Shown here: piece by piece, positions 12,005 to 56,200 of the stretch | How the letters are laid out: each line of letters opens with the position of its first letter | Position numbering within the stretch: position 1 is the stretch's first letter | Assembly: GCA_964502145.1 (NCBI GenBank) | Contig: CAZCVI010000002.1 | Location: forward strand, 117,383-181,382 | Reading direction: 5' to 3' | DNA from: an uncultured Clostridia bacterium | GTDB lineage: Bacteria > Acidobacteriota > Aminicenantia > UBA2199 | Length of the DNA stretch: 64,000 nucleotides | Program-made: the position numbers and the translations under genes | The notes under the pieces: generated by a model | What the model was told of the DNA's origin: nothing | The model's database searches: none | The model's input: the letters and a program-made list of their open reading frames with translations, nothing else

Positions 12005-12082
12005 ATGCAAGTTAAAAAAAGAGTTGTCAGGCAATGGGAAAACTTTTTCCAGACGACAATTTTCTCGGGTATGTGTAAATGA
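12005..12082 (+). CDS. Candidate small ORF (25 aa, MQVKKRVVRQWENFFQTTIFSGMCK), ATGA-coupled to the rSAM gene
   Basis: Not in the ORF track (shorter than 60 aa). GGGTGA lies 6 nt upstream of the ATG at 12005. Its TGA stop (12080-12082) overlaps the ATG (12079) of the downstream gene. Confidence 0.25.
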   Translation: MQVKKRVVRQWENFFQTTIFSGMCK

Positions 12083-13923: not shown

Positions 13924-13950
13924 CTCCTCTAAAGAGCTGAAAAAACTACC

Positions 13951-27665: not shown

Positions 27666-27843
27666 AGAAATAGGGTTCGCTGCTGCTTTTTTGGGTTATC
27701 ATGCGAGTATTTTAAAGGAAAGCAGCCAAAAAAGCAAGGGAATTAATAATTCTGGATTTACCTTCTATTTGTTTTCCTCTTGACTTTACGGGGAATTATC
27801 TTTATAGTTTCTTTTGATAAATAATTTTAATGAAGGATATGAC

Positions 27844-29202
27844 ATGCCTGAAACAAATAATGAACCAAGATTCACGTGCGATTGGATTTTTAATATACTG
27901 GTGGTCTTAAGCGACGGGAAAGTGGTGTGCGGGTGCGCGGACCCTTATGGTCAGAGACCTCTGGGCCATTTACAGGAAAAGGGAATCTACGAGATTTGGA
28001 ATTCTGAGCCAGTGAAACAAATCCGCCGGGATTTGAACGCGGGACATGCCGATTTCTGCGGTCCCTGCGGTTTGAAACGGTTCCTCAAAGAAAACGAAAC
28101 GCTACCACAAGCACCGGAACACCTGGACGTATTACCCCGACTATTTTTGGAACCGACGGTGTTATGCAACCTGAACTGCTTCAAAGCGGTGTGCAGCAAA
28201 GAAGCGGATATCTTAAAATCGCGCACACGGACTATTTTTCCGGTTGAAGAATTTAAAAGTCTTTTAGATCAAGTGTGGGAGAAACTGATCCGCTTGGATT
28301 TTTTTAACTACGGCGACCCTTTTGTTCATCCACAAGCGGCGGAAATGATGGCTTATATTAAAGAAAAATACAGGCATATCTATCTGTATGTGAGTACGAA
28401 CGGATTGATGCTGGATGAAGAGAAAATAAAAATTCTGGCGGCTTCGGGGGTGGATGAGATTACATTTTCGGTGGATGGGGTAGATCAGGAATCGTATGGT
28501 CACTACCGACAGGGCGGGGATTTTAATAAAGTGCTGGGGCTGATGGCCAAAATGGTAGCGGAGCGAAATAAAATAGGTCGCGAAGTGCCTTTTATTAACT
28601 GGCGTTATATTCTGTTTAATTGGAACGATTCCGTTGCGCAGATGAAACGGGCGAAAAAACTGGCGGCCAAAATCGGCGTCGATCGTTTTACCTGGGAAAT
28701 CACGGATCACCCAGTAGAAGGGAAATCGGAAAAATACCAGATCGGCACGGAGGCATGGAAAAAGATATATTATGAAATCTGGGATACGAGCCAAATTGGC
28801 AACGTGGTGAAAAAGAATCGTTTCATGGCAAAAATAAAGGTCTTGTCTGGACGGGTGGATATGGCGGTTGGGGGTGACGCTGTGAATGTCCGGGTGCAAG
28901 TGAAAAACAAGGGGGGCGCACTGTGGCGGAAAGTAACGTGGTCGGGTCGTAGACTGGTTCGCCTGGGCGCACAATGGTATGACAGGGATAAAAAACTGCT
29001 GGACCTGAATTATGCACGGGTGTTTTTAAATAAAGACTTGGGTTATCGGAAAAAAGATATCTTAACGATCACGTTACCGCCATTATCGCAACCTGGGGAG
29101 TATTTTCTGAAGTTTGATATGGTTTCGGAGGGCAATGATTGGTTTGAAAACGGGGGCTCGCCAGTGGTGTGGGTGCCGTTTAGGGTTTATGCGGGGGGGT
29201 AA
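27844..29202 (+). CDS. Radical SAM protein with N-terminal SPASM/twitch-like Cys-rich domain and C-terminal Ig-like domain
   Basis: ATG at 27844 (AAGGA 6 nt upstream) is preferred over the TTG at 27814. The N-terminus (CDWIFNILVVLSDGKVVCGC...LGHLQEKGIYEIWNS...CGPCGLK) looks like a SPASM/twitch domain. The core has CNLNCFKAVC (nt 28165-28194, Cx3Cx4C), YGDPFV, STNGLML and FSVDG. The C-terminal ~130 aa is beta-sandwich-like. Confidence 0.65.
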   Translation: MPETNNEPRFTCDWIFNILVVLSDGKVVCGCADPYGQRPLGHLQEKGIYEIWNSEPVKQIRRDLNAGHADFCGPCGLKRFLKENETLPQAPEHLDVLPRLFLEPTVLCNLNCFKAVCSKEADILKSRTRTIFPVEEFKSLLDQVWEKLIRLDFFNYGDPFVHPQAAEMMAYIKEKYRHIYLYVSTNGLMLDEEKIKILAASGVDEITFSVDGVDQESYGHYRQGGDFNKVLGLMAKMVAERNKIGREVPFINWRYILFNWNDSVAQMKRAKKLAAKIGVDRFTWEITDHPVEGKSEKYQIGTEAWKKIYYEIWDTSQIGNVVKKNRFMAKIKVLSGRVDMAVGGDAVNVRVQVKNKGGALWRKVTWSGRRLVRLGAQWYDRDKKLLDLNYARVFLNKDLGYRKKDILTITLPPLSQPGEYFLKFDMVSEGNDWFENGGSPVVWVPFRVYAGG

Positions 29203-29254
29203 TGGGAGGAATGGGAAGTATGGGAATTATGGGAGTTATGGGAAGAATGGGATA
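29201..29254 (+). repeat. 9-bp tandem repeat, 6 units ([A/T]ATGGGA[A/G]N), starting at the stop codon of the rSAM gene
   Basis: aatgggagg aatgggaag tatgggaat tatgggagt tatgggaag aatgggata. The reverse complements (cctcccatt, attcccata, actcccata...) are the same units found in-frame at 39832-39885 and 54091-54153. Confidence 0.95.
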
Positions 29255-29356
29255 TTTAGAACTATTTCTGAAAACACTGAATTTTATTAAAATAAGCTTG
29301 TAAGATTTTTAAATATTTTATATGATATCAGGGTAAATAATGAATTGGAGGTTGTT

Positions 29357-30148
29357 ATGGATTTAAAAATTAAAGGAAAAGTGGCGGTAGTCACGGCTTG
29401 CAGTAAGGGGTTGGGTTTTGCTGTGGCTGAAGCTCTGGCTGCAGAAGGGGTGAACCTGGCGATTTGTTCGCGGAATAAAGAAAAAATCGCGGAAGTGGCC
29501 GATTACCTGCGTGCGATGTATGAAGTAGACGTGCTGCACGATGTCTGCGATGTGACGGATAATGAGGGTATTGTGGCTTTTAAAGAGAAGGTGATCGAGC
29601 GTTTTAAAACCTGCGATATTCTGTTTACGAATGCGGGCGGCCCGAAACCAGGGAAAATTGAGGATTTTACAGGCGCGGATTTTAAAAAAGCCATTGATTT
29701 GAATCTGATGAGCACGATTAATTTGATATATGCTTTTTTGCCTTATATGAAACAACAAAAGTGGGGCCGGATCTTGGCTTTGACTTCTATCTCGGTGAAA
29801 CAACCAATTCCAACGCTGGTGCTTTCCAATGTATCGCGGGCTGGGGTGGTGGCGTTTATCAAGAGTTTGGCCCGGGAAGTGGCACCCCTTAATATCACGG
29901 CCAATACAATCGCCCCGGGGTACTTGATGACGGAACGGGTGAAAGACCTCCTGGAAGTGAAAGCAAAAAACGAGGGGATTACCTACGAACAAGCCAGAAC
30001 GGGAACAATTGAACTGATCCCGGTACATAAAATCGGGGCACCCCAGGACCTGGGGGCATTATGCGCCTTCCTGGCCTCGGAACATGCTTCCTATATCACG
30101 GGGGGAACACATCTGATTGACGGGGGAATGTATGGTGGTTTGATGTGA
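29357..30148 (+). CDS. Short-chain dehydrogenase/reductase (SDR, FabG-like)
   Basis: ATG at 29357 with GGAGG at 29347-29351. GKVAVVTACSKGLGFAVAEALAAEG is the TGxxxGxG-like cofactor motif. NAGG is present, along with a Ser...Y/K-type region and C-terminal ITGGTHLIDGG. Confidence 0.8.
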   Translation: MDLKIKGKVAVVTACSKGLGFAVAEALAAEGVNLAICSRNKEKIAEVADYLRAMYEVDVLHDVCDVTDNEGIVAFKEKVIERFKTCDILFTNAGGPKPGKIEDFTGADFKKAIDLNLMSTINLIYAFLPYMKQQKWGRILALTSISVKQPIPTLVLSNVSRAGVVAFIKSLAREVAPLNITANTIAPGYLMTERVKDLLEVKAKNEGITYEQARTGTIELIPVHKIGAPQDLGALCAFLASEHASYITGGTHLIDGGMYGGLM

Positions 30149-37381: not shown

Positions 37382-37430
37382 CTTAAGTGGTGAAAATATG
37401 TTTCGTCCGTTGGGTTTTTGTAATTATTTA

Positions 37431-37550
37431 TAGAACTGTCTATCTTTTTGTAGAATTATCTATCTTTTTGTAGAATTTTCCTGTTTTTCGTAGAATTTTT
37501 TGGTTTTAGAGACAAATTTCTAATTTCAGTTACAATTTTTTAATAATTTT
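37431..37550 (+). repeat. 20-bp tandem repeat array (4 clear + 2 degenerate units; TAGAATTnTCTATCTTTTTG) upstream of the NRPS promoter
   Basis: tagaactgtctatctttttg / tagaattatctatctttttg / tagaattttcctgtttttcg / tagaattttttggttttaga / gacaaatttctaatttcagt / tacaattttttaataatttt. The embedded TTGTAG motif recurs at 37598, 37618, 37678, 37693 and 37725. Confidence 0.85.
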
Positions 37551-37775
37551 TAAAAAATTGCGGTTACAGGGACAATTTTTTAAAAATTCCTTGAAAATTG
37601 TAGTGGTGCGGAGAAAATTGTAGCCATGGGGACTTTTTTTTAAATATTTTTGAAAACATGCACCTACAGGTCCAATTTTGTAGGCAGGGAGTTTGTAGGC
37701 AGTGTTTACATATTTGGATGGCTATTGTAGATGCGACATCTTGTCGCATTGATAAAGGCATAAAGCAAAATAGAT

Positions 37776-38070: not shown

Positions 38071-41000
38071 ATGAGTCAATTAGAAAGAAAGAAAATTGCG
38101 GATATTCTGATGTTAACGCATTTGCAAGAAGGGATTCTATTTCACTATCTGCAAGAACCCAAAAGCGCGCAGTATTTTGAACAATTAAGCCTGGAAATCT
38201 CGGGGGAGATCAATCTGGAACTATTCAAAACCGCATGGCATACGGTCATCCAAACCAATGAGATGCTGCGCACTGTATTCCGCTGGGAAAAAATGGAGAA
38301 ACCAACCCAGATTATCTTAAAAGAACATACCTGCGACATCACTTTTTACGACCTGACAGATGAAGCGACAAACAGGCAAAAATCCCGGCTGCAAGAGATT
38401 AAAGACAAGGATAAACAAACACCCTTTGACTTGCAAGAAGTGCCCATGCGAATTATGTTGTGCAAGCTAGGGACACACGATTATGAAATGATCATCAGCA
38501 ACCACCATATCATCTATGATGGCTGGAGCAACGGGATCATTCTGAAGGAATTCTTCAGGGCATACTATGGGCTAAGCGCGGGAAAACCTGCGCTCCTCCC
38601 GGACAAACCCTCTTTCAAAGAATTTATCAAATGGCTTCAAAACGAGGATAAATACGAAAAGGATAAACAAAAAGCGTTTTGGCGCGATTATCTAGCAGGT
38701 TTAGACGGTCAGACGGAATTACCGCTAAAAAACATAAAAAATAGAAAAAACACTGGCTCCAAGCAGGTAGAACACTATTCACTGGTTCTTGAACCGGAGT
38801 TAAAAGAGAGGTTGGAGGCGTTTGCCAAAACCAAGCGGTTCACTTTGGCCGGGGTGTTCTACACTGTCTGGGGGTTATTGCTACACCAGTATTGCAACAG
38901 CCAGGATGTTCTGTTTGGCACAACTGTAGCCGGTCGTTCCGCACGGATAAAAGGCATAGAAGAGATGGTGGGGCTGTTTATCAATACGATTCCATTACGA
39001 ATCCAAACGACTCCTGGTGAAAAAATGGTGGCGGTGGTCAGCGGCGTGGATCACGCGTTACAGGCCCGTGAACTTTTTGAGAATACACCGTTGTTGGATA
39101 TCAGAAATTACAGTGGCTTGTCTGGTTATGTATCGCTGTTTGATACGTTGGTAGTGATTGAGAATTATCCATTGGATAGTCGTTTACTGCCCGAAGAAAG
39201 CGGGTTGTCAGTTCATGCTTTTACTATTGCTGAAATGACCCATTATGATTTAACCGTGGGCATTGTGCTTTTTAATGAGATAGCCGTCACGTTTTCCTAT
39301 AACCCGGAATTATTCGCCCAGGAAATGATTGCCCATTTGGCCGGGCATTTTTTGTCTCTGGTACAGATGATTATAGAAAACGGCGAACAGGACATTTGCG
39401 CCATAGAAATAATCTCCCCTGAAGAAAAGCACCGCGTATTATATGAATTTAATAATACCGCCGCAGAATACCCATCAAACAAAACGATTCCCCAATTATT
39501 CATGGAACAATCCGCCCGGACCCCAGACTACATCGCCCTTATCTGGGAAAAAAGCGGGGCGTGCCATATATCCTATGCCGAATTAAATGAACTATCCAAC
39601 CGTCTGGCCTATTGGTTGCAAACAGAAGGCATTAGGCCCGATACTATCGTGGCTATAATGGTAAATCGTTCCATTGAAATGATTGTGGGCCTCATGGGTA
39701 TTTTAAAAGCCGGTGCCGCCTATTTACCGATTAACCCGGAATACCCGGCTGAACGAATTCAATTTATGCTGCAAGACAGCACCGCAAAAATCGTGCTCAC
39801 CGAACCAATCATCCAAGCAACCACTTCCCATATTCCCATTCCTCCCATAATTCCCATAATTCCCATTCCTCCCATAACTCCCAGTAATTTAGCCTATGTA
39901 ATATACACTTCCGGCACCACCGGCAAACCCAAAGGCGTTTTAGTAGAACATCAAAATGCCGTTAATGTGGTGTGCTGGTTAGGGCGAAAATATCAATTAA
40001 ACCCCGATACCCATATTATCTTGATGTCCGATTATACCTTTGATGCCAGTATTGATCAAATCTTCGGTGCCTTGTTGCATGGTGCCTCTCTTTATATCGC
40101 CAGTAAAGAGTTCATGTTGGATATGGATGCTTTACGCCATTACATCAATAAAAATCGGATCAATTTTATTAATTTTGTGCCGCTAGTGCTCAATGAATTG
40201 CTGGGCTATCGGGAGAAATTGCCCAGCTTAAACACCGTGATTTCCGGTGCAGAGCGGTTGGACGATACTATCAAAGATAATATCCTGAAGCGCGGCTATC
40301 ATTTATATAATCATTATGGTCCCACAGAAACCACGGTGGAGACACTGGTCTTCACTTGTACAGACGCTCCAGTTTACCTGGGGAAACCCATAGCCAATAC
40401 AAAAATTTATATACTTGATCAATGGGAACATATCGTTCCAATCGGCGTACCTGGAGAATTGTATATTGCCGGGGCCGGATTGGCCAGGGGGTATTTGAAC
40501 CGGTCCGATTTAACGGCGGAGAAATTCGTGGCCACACCCCATGGTGTAGAGAATGACCCTGTATCTCGAACCTATCGAACCGGGGACCTGGGGTGTTGGC
40601 TGCCCGATGGAAATATTGCGTTTCTGGGACGCATTGATCAGCAGGTTAAGATCCGGGGGTTCCGTGTTGAACTGGGAGAAATCGAAGCACAATTGCGCAC
40701 TTTCCCGGAAATAAAGCAGGTCGTGGTGAGCGCAAAAGAAGATAACCGTGGTGATAAAACGCTTTGTGCCTATATTGTATCCCGGCAGCTTTCTACAGGC
40801 CCCACTGCCCCCCTTGACCCAGCCGTGCTAACCACCTATTTAGCCGGTATCTTACCCGATTACATGATTCCCGCCTATTATGTCCAGTTGGCAGAAATTC
40901 CCCTGTTGCCCAATGGCAAAGTGGACCGCAAGAACTTGCCTGAGCCTGTTTTTATTGCCACCCAAGCATACCAGGAACCACGGCATGAACTGGATCGCAG

Positions 41001-41230
41001 ATTGCAAACGATATGGACGAGCGTTTTATTTGGAAACGTGCTTTCAGAAGATTCATCCGCACCACCACCTAAACCCATCGGGATTGATGATAATTTCTTT
41101 CATATGGGCGGACACTCCCTGAAGATCATGAATATGGCAGCTAAAATTCACAAGGAGTTGAACCTGGAAATACCAGTGCAAGAACTATTCACCCATCCCA
41201 CTATCCGGGTTTTGGCCAATTATATAAACA
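38071..41230 (+). other. Module 1: C (HHIIYDGWS at ~38503) - A (A3 motif ~39889-39939) - T (Ser 41116-41118)
   Basis: Motifs were read from the translation. My hand-extracted specificity code is D-A-D-N-I-G-H-V-E-K, which I cannot assign. Confidence 0.8.
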
Positions 41231-44200
41231 CGCGGGAACACACTAAAAATATCACTAAAAATAACTTTGCAGAGATCGCCGCTATTGAAGTAAAAGAATA
41301 CTATCCACTCTCTTCGGCCCAGAAAAGAGTTTATATTTTATACCTCATGGAAACCGATAGCATCAATTACAACATGCACGAGGTATTCCGCCTGGAAGGG
41401 GAACTGGACGTGGGCCGCTTGGAAAAAAGCTTTACCCAATTGATTCGCAGACACGAAAGCTTAAGAACTTCCTTTTTCTTACTCCATGATGAACCGGTCC
41501 AGAAGATTGTGGCCGCCAGTGATGTACCATTCGCCAGCGAATTTTTTGATCCAAACGAAAAAGACACCCTGGTCGAACCTGCCCTAAACGACACCGCGTT
41601 AATGGAAAATACCACTGTTTATGACATCAACCAGCGTTTTTTAAGACCCTTTGATTTGACTCAAGCGCCCCTGTTCCGCGTCGGGCTTATTAAAATCGCC
41701 AAGAACAGCCATATCTTGATGGCAGGAATGCACCATATTATTTCCGATGGCATATCAATTGACCTATTTATCACTGATTTTGTCGCCCTCTACCGTGGCC
41801 AGAACTTACCCCCCTTGCCCATTCAATACAAAGAGTATGCCCACTGGCAGCACCAGAAAAAAGCGCAGGGCGCCTTTAATAGCCAACGCTCCTACTGGTT
41901 GCATGAATTTGCCGGTGAGCTTCCCGTATTAACCATGCCCTATGATTTCCCCAGGCCAGCCGTGCAGAGTTTTGCCGGCGACAAATATTATTTTAACCTC
42001 CCCGCATACGAAACCAAAACGTTAATAAAACGGTGCCAGGAAGAAGCGGTGACTCTTTTTATGATGCTCAGCGCTATCTATTATGTGATGCTGTGGAAAC
42101 TGAGCGGTGCCGAAGAGATCGTGGTGGGAAGCCCCACGGCTGGACGCAGACACGCTGATCTGGAATCCATTTTAGGAATGTTTGTCAACACCCTGGCAGT
42201 AAAAACCAGCCCTGCCAAGGAAACACGCTTCAAACCCTTTTTGGCACAAGTCAAACAAAAGAACCTGGCAGCTTTTGAAAACCAGGAGTACCAATTTGAT
42301 GATCTGGTGGAGGAACTATTACCCGCACGGGATTTAGGTCGCAACCCGTTATTCGACATGATGTTCATCTTGCAAAATATGACCGGCACAACTAACACGG
42401 CGATAAATATTCCGGGCTTAAAAATAACCCGCCTTCCTTTTGAAACGCATATCGCGCCTTTTGATTTTTACCTCATGGCTGAAGAACGACAGGAGTCTAT
42501 CTATTTTACCGTGGGTTATTGCACCAAATTGTTTACGCTGGAAACCGTGCGTCGGTTCATGGGGTATTACCGAGAAATTCTGGCCACAGTGGTCACCCAA
42601 CCCGAGGTGGAACTGGCACGTATAGACATATTATCCCCGGCAGAGAAACGCCAATTAGTGCAGGAATTTAATAATACCCAACGACCGTACCCACAGGGTC
42701 AAACCATTCCGCAATGGTTTGCAGAGCAGGCCGCACGAACCCCAGAAGCCATTGCCGTGGTAGGGGAGGGGGTCATCACCTATCGGGAATTAAATCAACG
42801 GGCCAATCAATTGGCCCACCTGTTGCGACAAAAAGGAGTGGCCCCAGATACCATTGTTGCCCTCTTTATGTTTCGTTCTATCCAGATGGTTGTTGGTATC
42901 CTCGGCATATTAAAAGCGGGCGGCGCTTATTTGCCGATCAACCCCGTGTATCCTGGGCAACGTGTGTTGTCTATCCTGGAAGATAGCGGTGGCAATTATT
43001 TTATAAGCGATGAAAAAACATCCCGCCCTCTTTCTTTTACCGGTTTACAGCGTTTGGATGTGCCCGAAGTGACGCCCCTGGTTACAGCCAAACGACCCCA
43101 GATCACAAATTTTGATAGCTTGCCCCATCCCGATCGTACATTGATTGATTACAGCAAATATCATCGTTATATTGGTATTGCACCCGCCAAATACACCGTC
43201 AGTATCCAGGCCACTCGCGGCTGCCCGTATCAATGTGCCTACTGCCATAAAATATGGCCCAAAACACATGTCATGCGGCGGGCTGAAGATATATTCGCCG
43301 AGATTAGCGCCTGCTATCAGGCGGGGGTGAAACGATTTGTATTTATCGACGATGTCTTCAACCTCAATAAAAAGAACAGCGGCCAATTATTTCAAACCCT
43401 GATCGACCACCACTATGATGTGCAGCTCTTTTTTCCCAACGGGTTACGCGGCGATATCCTGACCCCCGATTTTATTGACCTCATGATTGAAGCAGGCACT
43501 GTTAATATTGATCTGGCCCTGGAAACGGCCTCGCCCCGCTTGCAGAAACTGATCAATAAACAATTGAACCTGGAAAAATTCGCGGCCAACGTCCATTATA
43601 TCACCCAGAAACATCCCCATGTCGTGTTGGAGATGGAGATGATGATTGGCTTTCCCACGGAAACGGAAGCGGAAGCTTTACAAACCCTGGAATTATTGCA
43701 GAGTTTTAAATGGGTCCATTTCCCCAACCTGAATATCCTCAAAATTTATCCCAATACTGACATGGCCCAACTGGCAATTGAAAACGGGGTCAGTCGTAAA
43801 TTGATTCATTCCTCCACCACCCTTGCATTCCATGAGTTGCCAGAAACACTCCCTTTTTCAAAAGATTTTGTCCGGGAGTATCAGGCACGCTTTACCAACC
43901 AGTATTTTCTTTCCCAGGAACGGTTGCGCCATGTATTAAAACAGCAGGTCAAGAGCTTCACCGCCGATGAGCTCGTGCAAAAGTACGACAGTTATTTACC
44001 CGTGGAGATCAAGTCTTTTGCCGATATTCTCAAGTGTGCTGACATCTCCAGCGCTGCATTGGGGCCCATTGAATTTATTCCCGAAGCCCGCTTTGCCGCT
44101 CCCGATTTTAACCAGCGGATCAAGGCTTTTTTCCCCTCCCGCCCCAGCTCGGAAAATGCTTTTCGTCTCTTGTTTCTTGACCTGTCGCAATCCTTTCGCG

Positions 44201-47200
44201 CCGATATGGGCCATACCCTTTACGATGTCGGAGCCGAACCCTTGGGGTTGATGTATCTCGCCTCCTATCTCCAAGAACAACTCGGCCCACACGTTCGGGT
44301 CAAAGTGTTGAAGTCGCGCATTGATTTTGATAGTTATGCCCAATTGCAAGAACAGATCACGTTGTTCCAGCCCCATTTAATTGGTCTGCGCACCCTATCC
44401 TTGTACAAGGATTTTTTTCATCGCACTGTTTCCCTGTTGCGGCAATGGGGCATTACCGCGCCTATTATTGCTGGTGGACCCTATGCCACCAGCGATTACA
44501 AACAAATGCTCCAGGACCCACACATCCATCTCGCCGTGCTGGGAGAAGGAGAAGCCACTACCCTCCATCTGGTTAAAGAGATGATGACCAAAAACAATAC
44601 CTGGCCCGCCGACGACGTATTGGAAACCATTCCCGGTCTCGCCTTTATTCGCCAATCAGAGCGAATGTTAACCACCGCCCCCCAGCGGCAGGTGCTCTTG
44701 TTGGACCAGATTTCTGGTCCATTGGCCCACTTTCCCACCACCAATCCCCAGAACGTCAATCACCCCGGTGATTTGCTATATTTGATCTCCACTTCCGGGT
44801 CTACCGGGAAACCCAAGAGCGTGATGGTCGAGCATCGCACCCTGGTTAATTTGCTGCATTTTCAATTCCATCATACAGCCATCCATTTTTCCCGTGTCTT
44901 GCAATTTGCCGCCATCGGGTTTGATGTCTCCGTGCAAGAGATTTTTTCTGCCTTACTCGCCGGTGGCACTTTATATCTTCCTGACGAAGATATGAAAAGC
45001 GATGTGCCCCGGTTGTTCCAGTTTATCCAGCAGAACCAGATCGAAATTCTGTTTCTGCCTCCTGCATTTTTGAATTTTGTTTTTTCTGACCCCGACTATA
45101 TCCCATTATTTCCCGACTGTGTGCGCCATATTATAGCTGCTGGCGAACAATTGATCGTGAACGAGGCGTTACGATTGTTCCTGAAGCAGCGGCACGTGTA
45201 TCTCCATAATCATTATGGCCCCTCTGAGACCCATGTTGTCACCACCTTGACCATGGATCCCACCCAGGAAATCCCCCATTTCCCCGGTATTGGCAGCCCC
45301 GTATCCAACACCGGCATTTATATCTTGGATAGCCAAAGCAATCTTTTGCCCCTGGGTGTTAGCGGCGAATTAAACATTGGCGGTATCCAGGTCGGGCGTG
45401 GTTATTTGGGTAATGTGGCGTTGACTGCCGAGAAGTTTGTGCCGAATCCCTTTGTCCCCGGTGATCGCTTGTATCGCACCGGTGATATGGCCCGATGGTG
45501 GTCAAATGGGAGTATTCAGTTCTTGGGACGCTTGGATTTCCAGATCAAAATCAGGGGTTTTCGTATTGAACCCGGTGAAATCGAGGGACAATTAAAAAAA
45601 CACCCGGATATTAAAGAAACAATTGTCCTGGCTCTGGCAGATAATAAGGGCGAGCTCTATCTGGTGGCTTATGTAGTGTTACAGCCGCAGACTACCATGC
45701 CCCTCTTACGGGAATTTTTATTGAACCGATTGCCGGATTATATGGTTCCCGCCCATTTTATCCCTCTGGCACGAATTCCCTTGAACGCCAGCGGGAAAGT
45801 CGACCGTCATGCGTTACCACCACCGGAAAATACACCGGGAAACGGGCATGTAGCACCACGGGACCCCATGGAAAAAAAATTGGCCGCTATCTGGTGTACC
45901 GTGTTGGGGAAAGATGTTGCCCAAGATACAGTCAGTATTGATGATAATTTTTTTCAAATGGGTGGGCACTCCTTAAAAGCCACCGCCCTCACCTCCAGGC
46001 TAGCCAAAGAGTTTCATGTTAAAGTGCCCCTCGTGGAGATTTTTAAAGAGCCCACCATCCGGGGCCTTTCCGGTTATATTGCCCATTCTATGGTGGAGCA
46101 ATACGCTGGCATAACTCCTGTAGAAGAGCAGGAATACTACCCCTTATCGTCAGCGCAGAAACGATTGCACTTTTTACAACAAATGGATAAAGCGGGAACC
46201 ACCTATCATCTGACTAGTAACTGGCTGTTGGAAGGTGTTGTCGCTAAAAACCACCTGGAACAATCGCTGCTAAAACTGCTACAACGCCATGAGAGTTTAC
46301 GCACTTCCTTTGATATCATAGCCGAAGAACCCGTGCAAATCATCCACCCGAAATTAGCATTTGTTATTGAAGATGAACATGCTACCATGGATTCTTTCCT
46401 GCGTCCATTTGCATTATCACATGCCCCGTTGCTGCGCGTCGGATTGGTAAAAATAGCAGCCGAAAAGTTTCTCTTACTCGTGGATATGCATCATATTATT
46501 TCCGATGGGTTGTCCATGGATATTCTGAGCCGTGAATTCACCGCTCTTTTGGCAGGCGTAGAACTCCCCCCATTACGTCTCCAATACAAGGATTATGCCG
46601 CGTGGCAGAGTTCTGAAAAAGAGAGCCCCCACTTCCGTCAACAAGAATTATTTTGGCAGCAAGAGTTTAGCGGCGCCATACCCGTGCTCGATTTGCCCGT
46701 TGATTATAGCAGACCACCCGTTCAAAGTTTCGCCGGGGCATCACTTCCTTTTGCCCTATCTCGTGATAGCGTTGTTTCCTTGCAAGCCATAGCAGTAGAA
46801 GCCAGTGCCACAATGTACATGGTGCTGCTCACATGTTATACTATCTTTTTAGCTAAAATGAGCAACCAGGAAGATATTGTCATTGGCACACCCATTGCCG
46901 GTCGCAGGCATGCAGACCTGGAGAAAATTATCGGGATGTTTGTCAACACATTGGTGTTGCGGAACTATCCGGTAGCGGAGAAAAAATTCAGCGATTTCCT
47001 GGCTGAGGTCAAAGAGAGAACATTAAAAGCATTTGAAAACCAGGAGTACCCGTATGAAGATTTGGTAGACAAAGTCACGATCACCCGTGACGTCTGTCGC
47101 AATCCCTTATTTGATACCATGTTTGTATTGCAAAATGCCACCCCACCACCCGTGGACATTCCCGGCTTAAAAATAGCGCCCGTGCCGCAGGAAAACAAAA

Positions 47201-50200
47201 CCGCCAAATTTGATCTGACTCTAACAGCAGTGGAAACCCCGGAAAAAATAGAATTGAACTTCGAGTACTGTACTAAATTATTTAAAAAGGAATCCATCCA
47301 CCGGTTTATCACCTATTTTACCAATATCATCGACTCCGTTCTGGCAGACCCCTTCATTGTCTTGGGTCAGATTCCCCTGCTCTCCCCAGCACAACGAGAG
47401 CAACTGCTGGTGGAGATCAACGCACCCGCCATCCGCTATCCTAATTTCAAGACCATTCAGGGTTTATTCGCCGAGCAGGTCAAAAAAACGCCGGATCGGC
47501 CAGCACTAACCGGTATCAGGTATGATCAAGCAGAAACTCACCTGACTTACCGGCAATTGGACCAGCTTTCCCGACAGTTGGCCCACCAGTTAACGGGTAG
47601 GGGATTGGGTCCTAACAAGCGAGCAGCCATAATGGTAGGCCGAAACGTGGAAATGATTATTGCCATTCTTGGAATTATTCAGGCCGGGGCCGCGTATGTT
47701 CCCTTGGACCCCCAGGCCCCTGTCGAACGATTGCACTATGTATTGGCTGATTGTGGCGCAGAATTATTATTAACCTTCCGCCCATTGGCTGCACGATTGG
47801 CTCCCGCCATAGATACACTTTACCTGGAAGAGTTTACCACCCTCCCTGCCACCCCTCCCGATGCCGTTCTCTCCGGTCATCCTGATGATCTCGCCTATAT
47901 TATATATACATCCGGCTCAACCGGTAGGCCCAAAGGTGTTCCTATTTGCCACCGCAATGTATCGCCCTTATTGTTTTGGGGGTATCGGTACTTAGGGATT
48001 TGTCGTCTAGATCGTGTTATCCAGAGTCCCTCCTATTATTTCGACTGGTCTGTCTGGGAGATATTTATTACCCTTACCAGCGGGGCCCATTTGGTAATGA
48101 TTAGCGAGGAGCTTGTACTTGATCCCCCGGCGTTGGTGGAATTTATCCGGCAGCACGCCATTACCACCCTGCACATCACCCCCACCCAGTTAAGTTATCT
48201 CGTGAATAGCAGACGCCCTATGCTCTCGTTGCACCATCTCTGTATTGGCGCCGAGAAATTAACCTATGATCTTGTAGCCCGTGCTCTTCCCCTGCTTGCA
48301 ACCGATTGCCGGATTTACAATATGTACGGTCCCACCGAAGCCACCATCATTTCCGCTGTGGCCGAGATTGACCGTGAGCAAATTCCGTTCTATCTCAAAC
48401 TGCCCAGTATCCCTATTGGTCACACCATCGCCAATACCACCCTGTTCGTATTGGATCATTCTATGAACCCCTGTCCCATCCATGTTGTTGGTGAACTGTA
48501 CATTGCCGGGGATGCCTTGGCCCGTGGTTATCTCAATGATCCAGAAAAGACCGTAGCCAGTTTCGTCACCAATCCCTTTGCCGAGATTTGCGGTCCCTAC
48601 CTCTACAAAACCGGTGATCGCGTTCGTCGCCTGGAGGATGGCAGCATTCTCTTTTTAGGTCGCGCCGATGATCAGGTAAAAATACGCGGCTATCGCATCG
48701 AGTTGGGGGAAATTGAGAACTGGCTGCTACACTATCCACACGTCAAAGATGCTCTCGTGCTGGTCAAAGCGGATCATCTACAGGAGAAATATTTATGTGC
48801 CTATGTGGCGTGTCCCATTGAATTGGATACCGCCGAATTAAGGGATTTCCTCGCCGCCAGACTTCCCGCCTATATGATCCCCGCCCATTTTATCACGCTT
48901 GAACATATGCCCCTCAACCCCAATGGCAAAGTCGATAAAAAACGCCTGCCCCTCCCTGAAATGCAAACAAGCCCACAAGTCGTCGCCCCCAAAAACGATC
49001 TGGAAAAAACCATCCTCTCTATCTGGCAAGACGTACTTGGACTCGACCACGTAGGCACCACGGATAATTATTTTGAACGGGGTGGCAATTCCATGAATAT
49101 CGTTAAAGTCAGTCACCGTTTAAAAAGTGTATTGAACCGCGATATCCCCGTGATGGACCTGTTCCGTTACCCCACCATCAAAACCCTGGCCGCTTACCTC
49201 AACCAGAGCCCCGGCCATGTCCCTTTCACCCCGTCGGAGATAGGGGAGTCCCTCCTACTTAATCAACCCGAAATACCCCGACATGAGAGTGTTTCTACCA
49301 CTCCCGCGATTGCCGTGATTGGTATGGCCGGAAGGTTGCCCGGTGCGAACACTATTTCCGCATTCTGGAACAATCTCAAGCATGGTGTCGAATCCATTGC
49401 TTTTTTCTCCCCCGCAGAATTCGCAGACAACGGGGGTGATCCCCGGTCCGTGAACCTGCCCAATTATGTTAAAACCCGCTGTGACTTGCAAGATATCCAG
49501 TATTTTGACAGTTCATTTTTTGGGTACACCCCCGTGGAAGCCGAAATAATAGACCCCCAGATGCGCCTATTTCATGAATGTGTCTGGGAAGCTTTTGAAG
49601 ATGCCGGTTATGAGTCCGGTTCTTATGCCGGTCGTATCGGGCTTTATTCCGGTGGGGAATCCAGTTCTTTCTGGGAAACATTAACCTCTTTATCCCAGAT
49701 TGGTCAGTTGATGAATCCCTTGATTCTGGGCAATTTAAATAATAAAGATTACCTCAGTTCCCGTATTGCCTATAAATTTAATTTACGCGGGCCATCCGTC
49801 ACCATGAACACCGCTTGTTCCACCTCACTTGTCGCCATTCATTTTGCTGTTCAGGGTTTGCTCAACCGCGAGTGTGAGATCGCCCTGGCCGGTGGCGTGC
49901 GGGTCATGCTGCCCGGAAAAACCGGCTATCTCTATCAAGAGGGTATGATTCAATCCCCAGATGGTCATTGCCGTGCCTTTGATGCCAGGGCCAATGGCAC
50001 CGTGGGTGGCGATGGCGTCGGTGTTGTAGTCTTAAAAACTCTGGCACGGGCCCAGGTGGATGGCGATCATATTTATGCTGTCATCAAAGGTTCTGCCATT
50101 AATAATGATGGTATTGGCAAAGTAGGTTACCATGCCCCCAGCATCAATGGTCAGGCTGCCGCCATTCGCGCCGCGTGTGCCAATGCTGCCATTGATCCCG

Positions 50201-53200
50201 GTAGTATCGGTTATATTGAAACCCATGGGACCGGCACCCAGTTGGGGGACACCGTGGAGATAGAGGCATTAAAACTCGTTTTTAACGCCCTCGTCTTGCC
50301 CCAGCATAAAAATACCTGCGCTATCGGGTCAGTCAAAACCAATTTTGGTCACCTGGGCAGTGCCGCCGGGGTGGCTGGATTCATTAAGACCGTATTGACC
50401 TTAAAACACCGCCTCATTCCACCCAGCTTGCACTTTGAACGCCCCAACCCGAAGATTGATTTTGAAAACAGCCCCTTTTACGTCAACACCCAATTAACCC
50501 CGTGGCCCTCCACCCTTCTTCCCGCGCGGGCCAGTGTCAGTTCCTTTGGCATAGGCGGCACCAACGCCCATATTATTTTGGAAGCCGTGGCCCCTACCAG
50601 CCCCGCATTCCCCGCCAGCGCCCGTCCCGATCAATTGCTATTATTATCCGCCCGCACCCCCGCTGCCCTGCACACCATGTCCGTCAATCTGCTGGAGTAT
50701 TTAAAAGAAAACCCGGTGCTTTCCCTGGCCGATGTGGCCTACACCTTGCAAGTGGGCAGAAAGCGTATGGCAATCAGGAGAAAGCTGGTATGTTCCACTT
50801 CCGCCCAGGTGATTGACCAGCTTGCTGCTTCCGGGCCCGCCCATGTCGGCGCTTACACCGCCTTGGTCGCCGATGAAGATAGGAAAGTTATATTTATGTT
50901 CCCTGGTCTTGGTGCGCAGCACGTTAATATGGGGCGCGGGCTTTATCACACCGAACCCATCTTCCGCGATGTGATGGACCGTTGTTTTGCTATATTAAAA
51001 GACCTGTACCCCGTGGACATAAAAGAAATTCTGTACCCTGCCGGGGAAATCTCGCCGGCATCAAACAGCCAATTCCACTCCTTTGAAGTCGAGCAACTCG
51101 TGTTGTTTGTGTTTGAATATGCCTTGGCCAGACTCATTTTGTCGTGGGGCATTCAGCCCCATGCCATGATCGGTTACAGTTTTGGCGAGTATGTGGCCGC
51201 CTGTTTAGCCGGGGTGTTTCGCTTGCAGGATATCTTAAAGTTGCTGGTCGTCCGTGGGCGGCTCATTTCCCAGCTTCCCGCCGGTGCCATGTTAAGTGTT
51301 CCCCTGCCAGTGGAAGCCGTGCAGCCTTTTCTTCCCGCCGAATTATCCATCGCCATAGACAACCGTTCCTCCTGCGTAGTTTCCGGGCCCGCCCAGGCCG
51401 TGGCTTCCTTTGCTCAGCAGATGAAAGCCAAGAAGCTCTTGTGTCCGCCCTTTGAATCCCCCTTTGCCGCGCATTCGTCGCAGTTGGACCCCATATTGGC
51501 GGAGTTTCACAAGGAAGTCGCTACAATTTCCCTCCAGACCCCGCAAATACCCTATATTTCAACCTGTACTGGCACATGGATCACTGTTGCCGACGCGCAG
51601 TCCCCAGAGTATTGGGTCAAACAACTCAGGTCCACCGTTTATTTTGTCCGCGGTATTCATCAGATTATAGAAGGGGTCTCCCCGGTATTTCTAGAAATGG
51701 GCCCCGGACGCGACATGAGTGCCCTGGTGAACCGTGAGATCACCGCTAAAACCGGCATACAGACCATGAACCTCCTCCGTCATCGCGGTTCCTTAAAAGA
51801 GCGCACCGATGAAGATTACTTGCTGGATAAAATCGGTCGCTTATGGTTGTATGGCGTGAATATAGACTGGCAAGCCTATCATTCCGGCCAGAGACGAAGT
51901 CGTCTCTCATTGCCTACCTATCCCTTTGAGAAAAAGCGGGCCTGGAAAATTATGGAAAATTATCACGCCGGTCAATATTCCTATCTACCCGGCGCCCCCG
52001 GTGCGCCAGAGAGTTCGCACCCGGCCCAAGGAACACCTCTGGCAGAAACACCGGGTGATCATTGGACACAAGAGCCCCCCCATCTCGAATGGAATGCTAG
52101 GCCGCAACTTTCCACCTCATATGTCGCTCCCCGCGATGAGGTGCAACAAGTCCTGCTTGATATCTGGCAGCATTTTTTTGGTATTCAAGAGATCGGTATC
52201 ACCGATGATTTTTTTGAATTGGGTGGCGATTCATTAAAAGCCACCACCCTGTTATCCACCCTGCACAAGGAAGCCAATATACTCGTCCCCCTCACTTATT
52301 TCTTCGATAATCCTACCATTGAAAAAATCGCCGCTTATGCCATAACCAGTGAAAATGACGCAGACCCAGGCGAAAAAGAGTTCCATGCCATCCAACTTTT
52401 GGAACAGAAAGAGTATTACCCCCTCTCTTCCGCGCAAAAGCGCATGACCTTTTTTCAGCAGTTGGACCAGACCAGTATCGGATACAACCTGGTGCTGGCA
52501 AACACCATCCAGGGCAATCTGGATACCCTAAAACTGGCCGCCATATTCACCAAACTAAGCGCACGGCACGAGATTTTGCGTACCTCTATTGAAGAGATAC
52601 AGGGTGAAACCGTCCAAAGAATTCATCCACATATTGCTGCCACACTGATCACCGGTCATGGAGAGTCCCCCGAAGTATTTATCGCCCAGTTCATCCGTCC
52701 CTTTGATTTAGCCCGTGCCCCCCTCATGCGGGTCGGGTTGTTGTCTATGGCCGAGCAGCAGTATTTATTAATCGTCGACATGCATCATATCATCTCTGAT
52801 GGCACGTCATTGGCCGTATTGATCGGAGAGTTTTTGGCTCTGTATCAGGAAAAAGAGTTGCCTGTTCTGTTGTTGCAGTATAAAGATTACGCTGTCTGGC
52901 AGAACCAGGAAATGGCCGGTGGGTTGTTTGTTTCGCAGCGGGATTACTGGATAAAGACATTTGCCGGTGAAGTTCCCGTGCTTGAATTGCCTTATGATTG
53001 TATCAGGCCGTTGGATCGCACCTATGCTGGCGATCTGTTGGCCTTTGAAATTGATCGTGCAGAGACTTCGGCGTTAAATCATTTCGCCAGTCAGCAGGGG
53101 GTCACATTGTACATGGTGTTGCTCTGCTTAACCACTATCCTTTTAGCCAAGTTAAGTGGTCAGGAAACCGTGGTCGTAGGAACTCCCATTGCCGGTCGTA

Positions 53201-56200
53201 CCCATGCGGACCTGGGCCGGATTATCGGCATGTTTGTCAATACCCTGGCCATGAAGAATGAACCCAATGGCCAAAAAACTATCCAGGAATTTTTAAAGGA
53301 AGTCAAAGAAAACACCTTGAGTGCTTTTGCCAACCAGAACTACCAGTATGAAGAACTGGTCGAGCACCTGCCCATAGATCGCAGTCTAGGCCATAACCCC
53401 TTGTTTGACACCCTGTTGGTCTTGCAAAACATGGCTCTGCCCAATATCAATATTCCCGAATTGACCTTAACACCCTATCCGTATCATACCGGTTTGGTAA
53501 ATTTTGATTTGACTTTCCTGTGTGTTGAAACCCCAGCTACCCTCTCGTTCACCCTTGAATACAGTACAGAACTCTTTAAAAAAGAAACCGCCCAACGCTT
53601 TATCGGTTTTTTCAAAAAGATATTAACCACCGTATTGGCGCACCCCGAAGGAAAAATATCCCAGATCGAGATAATATCCCAGCCAGAAAAAACCCAGATT
53701 TTATATGATTTCAACAACACCACCGTTACATACCCGGCCAACCAAACCCTTCCCCAATTATTTTCCGACCAAGCCGCACGAACCCCAGACCATATCGCCA
53801 TTATTGGTCCCACCCTGGCTCTAACCCACTGCCAATTAACCTACTCCCAATTAAACGAAGCATCCAATCGCCTCGCCCATTGGTTACTTTCCACTGGCGT
53901 CCGTCCCAATACCATCGTCGCCATCATGATCGAACGTTCCATTGAATTGATCATCGGCATTATCGGCATATTAGAATCCGGTGCCGCCTATCTTCCCATC
54001 GATCCCCAATACCCCGAGGAGCGAAAACAATATATACTAGCAGACAGCAATACAACCCTCATCCTAACCCAACACTCCATCCAACAAGCCATTCCCATCA
54101 CTCCCATCACTCCCAACACTCCCATAATTCCCATACTTCCCATCACTCCCATAAATCTCGCCTATATCATCTACACTTCCGGTTCCACCGGCAGACCCAA
54201 GGGCGTCATGGTAGACCATCACAGCATCGCCAACACCTTGTATTACCGCTGCCAGGAATATCGTATCGTGCCCAGTGATCGTGTACTCCAATTGTTTTCC
54301 TTTGCTTTTGATGGATTTCTCACCTCTTGTTTTACCCCCCTGCTTTCTGGCGCATCTGTCGTGCAGTTAAGCCAGGAGGACATAAAAGATATCTTCCGTA
54401 TCAAAGAGATGATTGTCGCCCAACGAATCACCCACTTTATCGCTGTCCCGTCCCTGTACCGCTCTTTATTGGAAGTCGCCACTGCCCTTGAGTTATCCCA
54501 CCTAAAAATCGTAACCCTTGCCGGTGAGCAGGTGCCCCCCGACCTCGTGGTAAAAAGTAAGTCTTTAAACCCCTTGTTGGAATTGGTCAATGAGTACGGT
54601 CCCACCGAGAGCAGTGTCCTGACCTCCATACACAGAAACCTCGAACCCGGTGCCATTATTTCCATCGGTAAACCCATAGCCAATACCCGGATTTATATTC
54701 TTGATCAAGATGATCATGTTGCCCCCATCGGGTTACCCGGTCAACTCGTTATATCTGGTCTTGGTTTGGCCCGCGGGTATCTCAATAATCCCCAACTCAC
54801 CGCCGCTACATTTTTCTCTTTAGCCCATTCAGCCACCTTCGCCACCCTCTCACCAAAACTCTATAAGAGCGGTGATTTGGCCCGCTGGTTGCCAGATGGA
54901 AACATAGAGTTCCTCGGTCGCATTGATCAGCAGGTTAAAATCCGTGGCTTCCGTATTGAATTGGGCGAGATCGAAAACCAACTGCTTCGCCATCCCCAGA
55001 TCAAAGAGGCAGTAGTGGATGTTAGAACCGAAAACAGCGGCGATCACTATTTATGCGCTTATATTGTCACCCAGGGCGAATGGGACATCTCCCAGGCAAG
55101 AGAATATCTGGCCAAGACCTTACCCGATTACATGATTCCCGCGCATTTTGTCGCCTTGGAGAAAATCCCCTTGTCCCCCACTGGCAAGATTCTACGTTCA
55201 GCCTTACCCCAACCGCAATTAAAAAGCGCGGCCCAGTACGTGCCCCCCCGCAATGACATAGAACAACAATTGGTAGAGATATGGACCGAGATTTTGGGCA
55301 GTGATCCATTGTTTGCCTCTTTTTTACATCCCTCTATAGGCATTGATGATAACTTTTTCCATCTCGGTGGGCACTCCTTAAAAGCCATGACCATGGTCAC
55401 CAAGCTCCATAAAGCCCTAAATGTTAAAGTGCCCTTGGTGGAAGTCTTTAAAACCTTGACCATCAGGAAACTGGCCGCCTATATTTTAGGTTTAAAAAAA
55501 GAGTTATACACCGCCATCCAACCCGCTGAAACCAGAGAGTATTATGACTTATCCTCTGCCCAGCGCCGGTTTTATATCTTGCAGCAAATGGAGCTGGACA
55601 GTTTTGCCTACAACAATTTTTCCGTCATGGTTTTGGACGGATTATTTGATAAAGAGAAATTTGGCCACGCGTTAAACCAATTGATCGCCAGACATGACAG
55701 TTTAAGAACCTCTTTTGAATTAATCGGAGGTGAACCTTTCCAAAAGATACATCAACAAGTAGTCGCGGAAATCGCTTATTTTGATTTCACCCCTCCCGGA
55801 AAAAGTCAGCTCTTAGAATCCACCATCCAACATTTTAACCGTCCTTTTGATTTATCTCATGCCCCCTTGCTCAGGTTCGGCATTATTCTCGTGGAGCAGC
55901 AAAAATCCTTGTTGCTGTTAAGCCTCCACCATATCATCAGTGACGGCACATCCATCGGCACCTTTATGAACGAGTTAATTTATTTATACCTGGGCCGAGA
56001 ACTCCCACCCCTGCGATTGCAATATCACGATTTCTCCCAGTGGCAAAAAAACCTCCTGGTTTCCGGGGCATTAAAGACCCAGGAAGAATACTGGTTAAAA
56101 GTTTTTGCCGGGGAACTGCCCGTTCTTGAAATGCCCACCGATTACCCCAGACCAGCCGTGCAAAGTTTTGCCGGTCACAGTATCGATTTCTTTCTGGAGG

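Follow-up and report, generated by a model that had tools for sequence, protein, structure and literature searches.

Two adenylation (A) domains of a hybrid NRPS/PKS carry short tandem repeats directly before their A3 cores, in the inter-core region where another A domain of the same protein holds a radical-SAM (rSAM) module. How did the repeats come to be there? An earlier note had proposed that insertions favor the A2-A3 loop as a hot spot and that a nonamer microsatellite resident in the genome had apparently colonised it or been tolerated there. We considered this proposal for the window, by which we mean the whole stretch of 64,000 nucleotides that was analysed, and for related A domains.

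Nonamer arrays in two adenylation domains

The features of the window that matter here are:

38071..56889, + strand: hybrid NRPS/PKS open reading frame, 6272 aa (6259 aa from the second Met)
39463..40935, + strand: A domain 1 (A2 core, 39703-39738; A3 core, 39889-39936)
39826..39885, + strand: nonamer array of A domain 1 (raw sequence, Tandem Repeats Finder, unit tables)
42910..44820, + strand: A domain 2 (A2 core through A3 core), containing a radical-SAM and B12-binding module (CxxxCxxC at 43210-43245)
47677..47943, + strand: A domain 3 (A2 core through A3 core), repeat-free; the segment is an ordinary 63 aa
53707..55206, + strand: A domain 4 (A2 core, 53971-54006; A3 core, 54157-54210)
54091..54153, + strand: nonamer array of A domain 4 (raw sequence, Tandem Repeats Finder, unit tables)
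29201..29254, - strand: non-coding nonamer array of the same family (raw sequence, Tandem Repeats Finder)

The 6272-aa protein has the domain order C-A1-T-C-A2(rSAM/B12 insert)-T-C-A3-T-KS-AT-T-C-A4-T-C. A domains 1 and 4 are NRPS adenylation domains of the ANL superfamily (Pfam AMP-binding, E = 1.9e-154 and 6e-161), with the A2, A3, and A10 core motifs in order; their best solved relatives are LgrA and GrsA. As the note had stated, the rSAM module of A domain 2 shares its region with the arrays, between the A2 and A3 cores: the 613 aa there include Radical_SAM and B12-binding domains, which makes this an interrupted A domain. A domains 1 and 4 have no domain match between these cores and do not belong to that class. 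The loop of A domain 3 is indeed ordinary, since its length is inside the typical 63-66 aa.

Both the raw sequence and Tandem Repeats Finder confirm the tandem nonamers before the A3 cores of A domains 1 and 4. The program placed period-9 arrays at 29201-29252, 39826-39883, and 54093-54152, with copy numbers of 6.6 and 6.7 for the two coding arrays. The 9-bp unit is TCCCATNNN, with the core TCCCAT and the codon layout NNT-CCC-ATN. The array of A domain 4 has seven units, with the spacers CAC, CAC, CAC, AAT, ACT, CAC, and AAA. In A domain 1, where six nonamers at 39832-39885 had been reported, the array is present but has seven units and begins at 39826: its first unit, ACTTCCCAT, is shifted by 1 nt (8-nt spacing) and codes for the preceding "SH." The 3-nt spacers of this array are TCC, AAT, AAT, TCC, and AAC, the last unit is degenerate (TCCCAG), and the whole encodes (T)SHIPIPPIIPIIPIPPITPS. 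The translations given earlier, IPIPPIIPIIPIPPITPS for A domain 1 and IPITPITPNTPIIPILPITPI for A domain 4, were exact. Each array encodes an (x-Pro-Ile)n peptide immediately N-terminal of the A3 core, and each tract stops one codon short of that core, (N)LAY(V/I)IYTSG, which begins at 39889 and 54157.

The pattern TCCCATNNNTCCCAT has 13 matches in the window, all of them within the three arrays, compared with 0.02 expected from shuffles. A three-unit pattern with up to 3 mismatches has 17 matches (0.11 expected), and scanning the whole window with it uncovered no array beyond these three.

The six units of the non-coding array read TCCCAT on the - strand and ATGGGANNN on the + strand. The array begins at the stop codon of an rSAM/SPASM open reading frame (27814-29202), and an SDR gene (29345-30148) starts 92 nt downstream of it. 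As had been observed, this array contains the exact reverse complements of the units ATTCCCATA, ACTCCCATA, and CCTCCCAT. Gene callers place a 33-aa open reading frame (MGGMGSMG…) across it; we rejected this as a RiPP precursor for the rSAM/SPASM neighbor, as nothing except adjacency favors it. A role for non-coding arrays as a CsrA sponge or a Rho site was also considered. A search of the window and of 10 loci with arrays against Rfam covariance models gave tRNAs only; no family for the repeat was matched.

Repeat DNA and protein fold

The tracts are an in-frame coding microsatellite: the period is a multiple of 3, and the homogeneity exceeds what the protein would need. The core proline codon of the arrays is CCC in 13 of 13 cases, compared with 59% gene-wide (P of about 0.001), and the codon before it ends in T in 13 of 13, compared with 26% gene-wide. 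Because of this invariance at synonymous sites, and because the units also occur reverse-complemented in non-coding DNA, we agree with the earlier view that the repeat exists at the level of DNA and belongs to the same family as the nearby non-coding array. Four of the eight G3+N1-7 x4 motifs in the window fall in the three arrays; the G-quadruplex motif of the coding arrays is on the template strand, within the gene.

The earlier note had asked for models of the A domains to establish whether the tract is a solvent-exposed loop, and it is modelled as a low-confidence coil in two otherwise confident AlphaFold2 models. In A domain 1 (pLDDT 91.9), the tract spans domain residues 122-142, with a pLDDT of about 50-77; in A domain 4 (pLDDT 93.0), it spans domain residues 127-150, with a pLDDT of about 60-86. 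The A-domain fold is kept despite the tract (best Foldseek TM scores, 0.89 for EntF and 0.86 for LgrA). When aligned to LgrA, the tract falls in the loop before the A3 strand, with a deletion of about 8-10 residues that takes in the preceding strand. Both domains have an A2-A3 distance of 54 aa, although their arrays start at different points. Because this is below the normal distance, the repeat replaces the usual strand and loop without net insertion. It is thus not the added spacer that had been suggested: about 10 aa more are replaced than are contributed. We infer that the enzyme tolerates a Pro/Ile coil of about 3-12 units, and the amino acid sequence of the tract would then be a by-product of the reading frame and not a selected feature.

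Descent, copy number, and rival explanations

We use "R-type" as a label for the clade of A domains that carry the nonamer tract in the variable segment before the A3 core. Six other megasynthetases of this sample set (P0128, P0129, P0132, P0141, P0211, and P0412) contain at least 17 A domains that carry the tract along with homologous flanks (QFIQExT…TPTN followed by LAY); in five of these six proteins, the tracts are known at the protein level alone. The flanks of A domains 1 and 4, (x)IQ(x)A(T) … TP(S/I)N followed by LAY, are common to these domains. The shared flanks indicate that the tract was passed down within the clade, with module duplication or recombination spreading it, which contradicts independent colonisations of A domains 1 and 4. 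A stray genome-wide microsatellite entering the gene is not supported either: in roughly 90 kb of DNA from this lineage, six of the seven arrays are inside A domains. All six are in the same frame and orientation. The hosts of the clade are uncultured freshwater-sediment bacteria; in exact-sequence clusters their proteins are singletons, and judging only from named NRPS homologues, their lineage would be near Aminicenantes and Acidobacteriota.

We also looked for the repeat more broadly. A scan of 185k genomes for the TCCCAT-array pattern returned at least 119 stretches from many phyla, with the source genome absent among those listed, and a permuted-core control on viral contigs returned 80 stretches, compared with at least 120. 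Given this control, the breadth across phyla is weak evidence, and we do not claim a universal repeat family. A metagenome scan for an array plus an A3 core gave one chance two-unit match and missed the window's own contig as well, so it does not count as a negative. Searching other long open reading frames of the fetched loci for arrays in the x-P-I frame identified no A domains; most of the matches were apparently in spurious frames.

Tract length among homologous A domains ranges from 3 to 12 units, and the differences are always multiples of 3 aa; with a 9-nt unit, each change in copy number stays in frame. A sister cluster has four TCCCAT arrays (69, 69, 105, and 87 nt) at the same A-domain site, and the length of one of them differs between two samples: 105 nt (12 units) versus 42 nt (5 units). 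The two contigs, L335 and L336, have 3 mismatches over 23 kb (99.98% identical) and differ by a 63-nt deletion between 24-nt direct repeats. Variation in copy number that preserves the frame, as the note had anticipated, is therefore seen both among homologous domains and between two samples' assemblies. At the window's own arrays, we found no such variation: every assembly covering the window, from JGI, ENA (three samples), and Logan, was 100% identical to it, two of the arrays included.

Could the arrays or the length differences be artifacts of short-read metagenome assembly? Tandem repeats are prone to collapse, the 63-nt difference lies exactly between direct repeats, and the difference between 105 and 42 nt could be due to collapse of the de Bruijn graph in one assembly. 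However, the same arrays were obtained with different assemblers and samples (JGI, and MEGAHIT for the three ENA samples), the 6272-aa open reading frame stays open through them, and homologous tracts are found in six other proteins. Also, at 42-105 nt, the arrays fall short of the final k-mer, which was 141 according to the contig names. We consider an artifact very improbable.

The explanation that we think probable is that the R-type clade carries an in-frame microsatellite that was acquired once or a few times, was spread by duplication and recombination, varies in copy number, and is tolerated. An array would have been gained in an ancestral A domain, where it displaced an edge strand and a surface loop, and then been carried to many modules and clusters via module duplication and recombination. 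The shifts in copy number are observed; they may arise by slipped-strand mispairing or by unequal recombination between units.

That a resident nonamer microsatellite instead colonised A domains 1 and 4 independently, at the site of entry of the rSAM module into A domain 2, seems unlikely to us, even though the same nonamer family is present in non-coding DNA 10 kb upstream and the site does accept other sequences. Methyltransferase domains are documented to interrupt A domains between a2 and a3 (PMC8341866), an rSAM/B12 module is at this site in the Aminicenantes NRPS P0458 as well as in A domain 2, and related A domains have other kinds of short repeats there. Also, in an unrelated A domain (P0279/L334, with P0279 coming from a short-profile homologue search that returned only short fragments), this loop carries an oppositely oriented (ATAGGRCCT)3, which is probably an independent event. 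However, the flanks of A domains 1 and 4 point to common descent, and their A2-A3 distance points to replacement; the concentration of the lineage's arrays in A domains also argues against independent colonisation. Selection on the protein, with (x-Pro-Ile)n forming either a hydrophobic linker that is rigid and polyproline-like or a docking surface (such as for a trans-acting partner) that the DNA repeat merely encodes, is in our view more doubtful still. It would fit with the retention of the tract in many A domains with differing downstream specificity regions, with the equal A2-A3 lengths of A domains 1 and 4 despite differing array starts, and with the shared frame and orientation of the six arrays seen as DNA. 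But it would not account for the invariant synonymous positions, the range in unit number (including 12 versus 5 in nearly identical contigs), the lack of defined structure in the AlphaFold2 models, or the occurrence of the same units on the other strand of non-coding DNA.

Known systems and possible recombination at the A3 core

Our literature search found no description of this repeat or of any tandem repeat in an A domain, and the nonamer array appears to be a new variant of coding microsatellite. The STRR heptamers of cyanobacteria are a dispersed family of 7-nt units that are mostly intergenic. The nonamers are likewise a dispersed family of short tandem repeats typical of certain lineages, but the unit is 9 nt, and in the DNA seen it is mostly inside A domains. 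In-frame VNTRs or simple-sequence repeats occur in bacterial genes, such as those for surface proteins and phase-variable loci. These share with our arrays the head-to-tail units, the length that is a multiple of 3, the homogeneity of the DNA, and copy changes that keep the frame. In contrast, our arrays lie inside a catalytic domain of a cytoplasmic megasynthetase and recur at the homologous site of many paralogous domains, and on/off switching is not expected. Nonanucleotide repeats are mentioned in PMC7383803. Lundy et al. 2020 described A domains interrupted between a2 and a3 (families 3, 4, and 7; PMC8341866); as in those proteins, of which A domain 2 is a case, foreign sequence is tolerated and the fold is kept. 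However, A domains 1 and 4 have no embedded catalytic domain, just a low-complexity repeat of 19-21 aa; their inter-core distance is below the ordinary one, and the inserted element is a DNA microsatellite.

Baunach et al. 2021 described recombination of the A-core subdomain (A3-A9) in NRPS evolution and invoked the conserved core motifs to explain the junctions; natural A-core exchanges are known to have A3 as a left boundary (PMC8097286). Similarly, module similarity here breaks at A3, and the C-A linker and N-terminal A sequence are shared across specificity regions. A tandem repeat abutting A3 is present here but was not described there. Upstream of the tract, R-type domains are 50-76% identical regardless of their downstream group, and between groups the downstream identity is 28-45%. 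In L335, identity between modules a and b is about 78% over 3.4 kb and 94% just before the array, and it falls to about 40% within 50 nt past the array and A3. The end of similarity just past the array and A3 core suggests a recombination junction. However, similarity that stops at A3 is expected from any A-core swap, with no need for an array.

Together with the adjoining A3 core, an array offers a near-identical stretch of 60-160 nt at the left edge of the A-core, which confers specificity. Because of this, the arrays, along with the conserved A3 core, may act as frame-safe junctions for recombination between modules. We hold it possible, but rather doubtful, that the arrays are evolvability elements, or frame-safe recombination "zippers" at the left edge of the A-core, whose antisense strand is predicted to be prone to forming quadruplexes. 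Cahoon and Seifert in 2009 reportedly described gene conversion at Neisseria pilE that depends on a G-quadruplex. There too, a G3N1-7 x4 motif would lie beside a locus whose diversity comes from recombining with paralogous copies, but this is an analogy only: the motif here is predicted from sequence and is on the template strand within the gene.

For metagenomic biosynthetic gene clusters, the arrays are likely spots of misassembly and length polymorphism. More broadly, a catalytic NRPS domain can bear a length-variable microsatellite in its a2-a3 loop across many modules, and this tolerance suggests the loop as a natural permissive site for engineered insertions. If the arrays do act as zippers, then misaligned exchange between modules or clusters would yield in-frame hybrids, and A-cores and modules would be shuffled faster in the many NRPS clusters of this lineage. 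How hybrids are kept in frame and functional is a long-standing question of NRPS evolution and re-engineering. The arrays are placed exactly where natural A-core exchanges begin, and should they promote recombination, module shuffling would have in them a junction that is both built-in and portable.

Nonamer arrays in the window

Tandem Repeats Finder reports period-9 arrays in the window at 29201-29252, 39826-39883, and 54093-54152, and they are also visible in the raw sequence. All 13 matches to TCCCATNNNTCCCAT in the window lie within these three arrays (0.02 expected, from dinucleotide-preserving shuffles), and no fourth array was found in the window, even with 3 mismatches over three units. 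Both coding arrays are in a single open reading frame for a hybrid NRPS/PKS.

29201-29254, - strand: non-coding nonamer array
38071-56889: NRPS/PKS ORF, 6272 aa, domains C-A-T-C-A(rSAM/B12)-T-C-A-T-KS-AT-T-C-A-T-C
39826-39885: coding array in the first A domain (A1)
54091-54153: coding array in the fourth A domain (A4)

The coding arrays stop one codon short of the A3 cores, which begin at 39889 (A1) and 54157 (A4). The tandem nonamers that the earlier note placed before A3 in these two domains are real; its translations of them are exact, and, as it stated, the coding units are found in exact reverse complement within the array at 29201-29254. The latter begins at the stop codon that ends an rSAM/SPASM ORF (27814-29202), and an SDR gene lies 92 nt downstream. 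We treat it as non-coding by default, though gene callers place a 33-aa ORF (MGGMGSMGIMGVMGRMGYLELFLKTLNFIKISL; 29202-29303, + strand) over it, right after the rSAM/SPASM gene. Most of this ORF is the array in its ATG-GGA-NNN reading; although the ORF adjoins the SPASM maturase, it is unlikely to be a gene.

The repeat is a feature of the DNA rather than of the protein. The core prolines of the coding arrays are encoded by CCC in 13/13 cases (59% in the rest of the gene), and the preceding codon, which encodes Ile, Pro, Thr, or Leu, ends in T in 13/13 cases (26% gene-wide). As proteins, A1 and A4 share only 49% identity, and outside the array and the core motifs their DNA is 50-57% identical. 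Also, the nonamer units recur in non-coding DNA, on the opposite strand. The antisense strand of every array matches the canonical quadruplex motif (G3N1-7 x4), and 4 of the window's 8 such motifs are within the three arrays; we take this match as a property of the sequence only.

The window contains several other features. At 12079-16215, a RiPP-type pair forms a second natural-product locus: its first member is a radical SAM C-methyltransferase, which exceeds the cut-off for TIGR03975 at 437 bits, and next comes a fused leader-binding/YcaO cyclodehydratase (TOMM SagD family). A 1758-aa protein at 17061-22337 has Ser/Thr kinase, STAND/AAA ATPase, and SpoIIE phosphatase parts together with a GAF domain. 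The 800-nt gap before the NRPS start contains overlapping AT-rich tandem repeats of 20 and 11 nt (37427-37559), and two Logan contigs end within them, at 37554.

The pre-A3 tract and the A domains that carry it

The earlier note described the repeats as Ile/Pro-rich spacers of variable length. They do not lengthen the loop as an added spacer would: the spacing from the end of the A2 core to the "LAY" of A3 is just 54 aa in A1 and A4, while 63-66 aa is usual among 106 A domains homologous to A1. A domain 3, at 63 aa, does have the ordinary loop that was ascribed to it. When aligned to LgrA, the tract corresponds to the loop preceding the A3 strand, and about 8-10 residues are absent, including the preceding edge strand. 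In the predicted structures, which are otherwise confident (mean pLDDT 91.9 for A1 and 93.0 for A4), the tract is a coil of 21 residues in A1 (pLDDT about 52-77 in 10-residue blocks) and of 24 residues in A4 (about 60-86). Against solved A domains, the A1 model reaches TM scores of up to 0.89 on superposition. This modeling, which the earlier note had proposed, therefore points to a disordered segment or loop replacement within an otherwise normal A domain. Between A7 and A8 there is another loop of low complexity and low pLDDT: SPSTLSISSITSISSMSST in the A domains of P0141, another NRPS protein, and SLAHSATFATLSPK in A4 (aa 5583-5598, about 54817-54864, pLDDT about 68).

The 55-aa A1 tract was the query for an exhaustive HMMER search (1.84 billion representative proteins), which identified five other megasynthetases (P0128, P0129, P0132, P0141, and P0211), and a later search added a sixth tract-bearing protein, P0412. 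Their A domains have a common frame, …LLT.QFIQE(A/S)T–(xPI)n–TPTN and then LAYIIYTSG, which is matched by A1 (PIIQATT…ITPSN, then LAY) and A4 (HSIQQA…ITPIN, then LAY). There are at least 17 of these R-type domains. When 13 equally delimited segments were aligned, their lengths were 101, 104, 107, 110, 113, and 116 aa, and every gap was a multiple of 3 aa, or one nonamer. The R-type proteins share the window's combination of sources (NCBI/JGI/ENA), and Aminicenantes and Acidobacteriota MAGs supply the closest named NRPS homologues. The earlier note was right in part: the repeat is a DNA microsatellite that keeps the reading frame, varies in length, and lies in a permissive loop. Independent insertion into A1 and A4 does not agree with the flanks common to at least 17 domains, which indicate that the two arrays are homologous by descent and are a trait of the clade.

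The suggestion that the A2-A3 loop is an insertion hot spot holds in part: the arrays of A1 and A4 are related by descent, but the pre-A3 segment is generally permissive, since different short repeats and an rSAM module occur at this one site. The rSAM/B12 module of A domain 2 occupies the same inter-core segment as the arrays. TTCATCA-type repeats (IHHSS…), a different family, are in the pre-A3 loop of two Aminicenantes/Acidobacteriota A domains (L131, 455-568; L132, 406-510), and further related A domains have VSKVSKVS or S/T-rich tracts. In another NRPS protein, P0279 (locus L334, 1027-1533), (ATAGGRCCT)3, encoding IGPIGPIGPI, and then (CCCACTCAY)2, encoding PTHPTH, precede A3. The former is the nonamer in its TCCTAT form, oriented the other way, and this repeat is probably an independent event. 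(The called ORF of P0279 ends prematurely.) Permissiveness was already implied by the literature on interrupted A domains: interruption of the A2-A3 segment by methyltransferase domains is documented (PMC8341866), and the a2-a3 entries in a review of interrupted A domains are methyltransferases only.

The radical-SAM and B12-binding module of A domain 2 (42910-44820) is embedded between the A2 and A3 cores, and its top NCBIfam matches are BchE/ApyD/PhpK-like B12-rSAM enzymes, all under the curated cut-offs. P0458, a partial NRPS from an Aminicenantes MAG, has an rSAM-interrupted A domain of the same architecture, whose cluster-binding motif is nearly identical (ATRGCPYNCLYCHKIWPKTHV, following the A2 core).

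Length differences and possible recombination at the arrays

The window, which is included in a 301-kb JGI metagenome contig, matches independent ENA and Logan assemblies of several samples at 100% identity, and two of the arrays are within the matched sequence. Hence the arrays did not arise from a quirk of the assembler, a possibility that the earlier note had raised; by the same token, strain variation is not visible at them. The sister cluster that encodes P0412 is represented by contigs from two samples (L335 and L336). Its NRPS genes contain four TCCCAT arrays in 26 kb (69, 69, 105, and 87 nt), all of which immediately precede A3 cores and share the frame and orientation of the window's coding arrays, as well as a degenerate relic (…ATAFAPLAPLAHSHS, then LAY). 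The two contigs have 3 mismatches over 23 kb, and one array differs between them, with 12 units (105 nt) in L335 and 5 units (42 nt) in L336. The 63-nt difference is in frame, is bounded by 24-nt direct repeats, and agrees with the called products of one of the two giant NRPS genes that flank P0412 (5321 and 5300 aa). Slippage or unequal exchange would produce this outcome, but it may instead reflect assembly collapse. The other flanking NRPS gene is called as 6194 aa in L335 and 7820 aa in L336; this difference is due to a contig end.

Upstream of the tract, R-type domains are 50-76% identical over 125 aa, whatever follows; over the 230 aa after A3, they are 56-77% identical within groups and 28-45% identical between groups. 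At the DNA level, the identity of array-bearing module pairs is highest (67-90%) in the A3 core and over the 150 nt that precede the array, and for most pairs it then falls to 41-56%. The clearest case is modules a and b of L335, with about 78% identity over the 3.4 kb upstream, 94% immediately ahead of the array, 82% over the array and A3, and about 40% from 50 nt beyond. Because identity breaks at the array and A3, and natural A-core exchange units are known to have A3 as their left boundary (PMC8097286), the arrays appear to sit at a recombination boundary. The conserved A3 core could account for this boundary alone, with no contribution from the array, and it seems unlikely that the arrays are frame-safe junctions for the shuffling of A-cores and modules.

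The nonamer beyond this lineage

A scan of one genome per species found nonamers in at least 119 stretches from many phyla. Breadth across phyla means little by itself, since a control with a permuted core found 80 stretches in viral contigs, as compared to at least 120 for the TCCCAT core. Some matches are clearly Met/Gly-rich coding repeats. Among the matches listed, arrays with TCCCAT or TCCTAT cores outnumber all other 9-periodic arrays combined (833 kb of loci), and 17 of the 119 loci carry between two and four distinct arrays, frequently paired in inverted orientation. Many of the listed arrays are non-coding or at gene ends, and several are just past a stop codon in the ATGGGA sense, like the window's array at 29201. 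Dispersed ATRGGANNN/TCCYAT arrays occur in Planctomycetota, Verrucomicrobiota, Acidobacteriota, Bacteroidales, and others (L012-L130), often as inverted pairs or just after the stop codons of co-directional genes; examples are L089 (4249, 5173, and 6250), L071, L129, L022, and L026. We found no Rfam family for these arrays, no paper on this nonamer repeat, and no description in the literature of tandem repeats inside A domains.

Overall, the arrays in A1 and A4 are likely to be a coding microsatellite of one clade of A domains: it would have been inherited within the clade, it would be tolerated by the A domain as a replacement for a loop, and its length would change by slippage.
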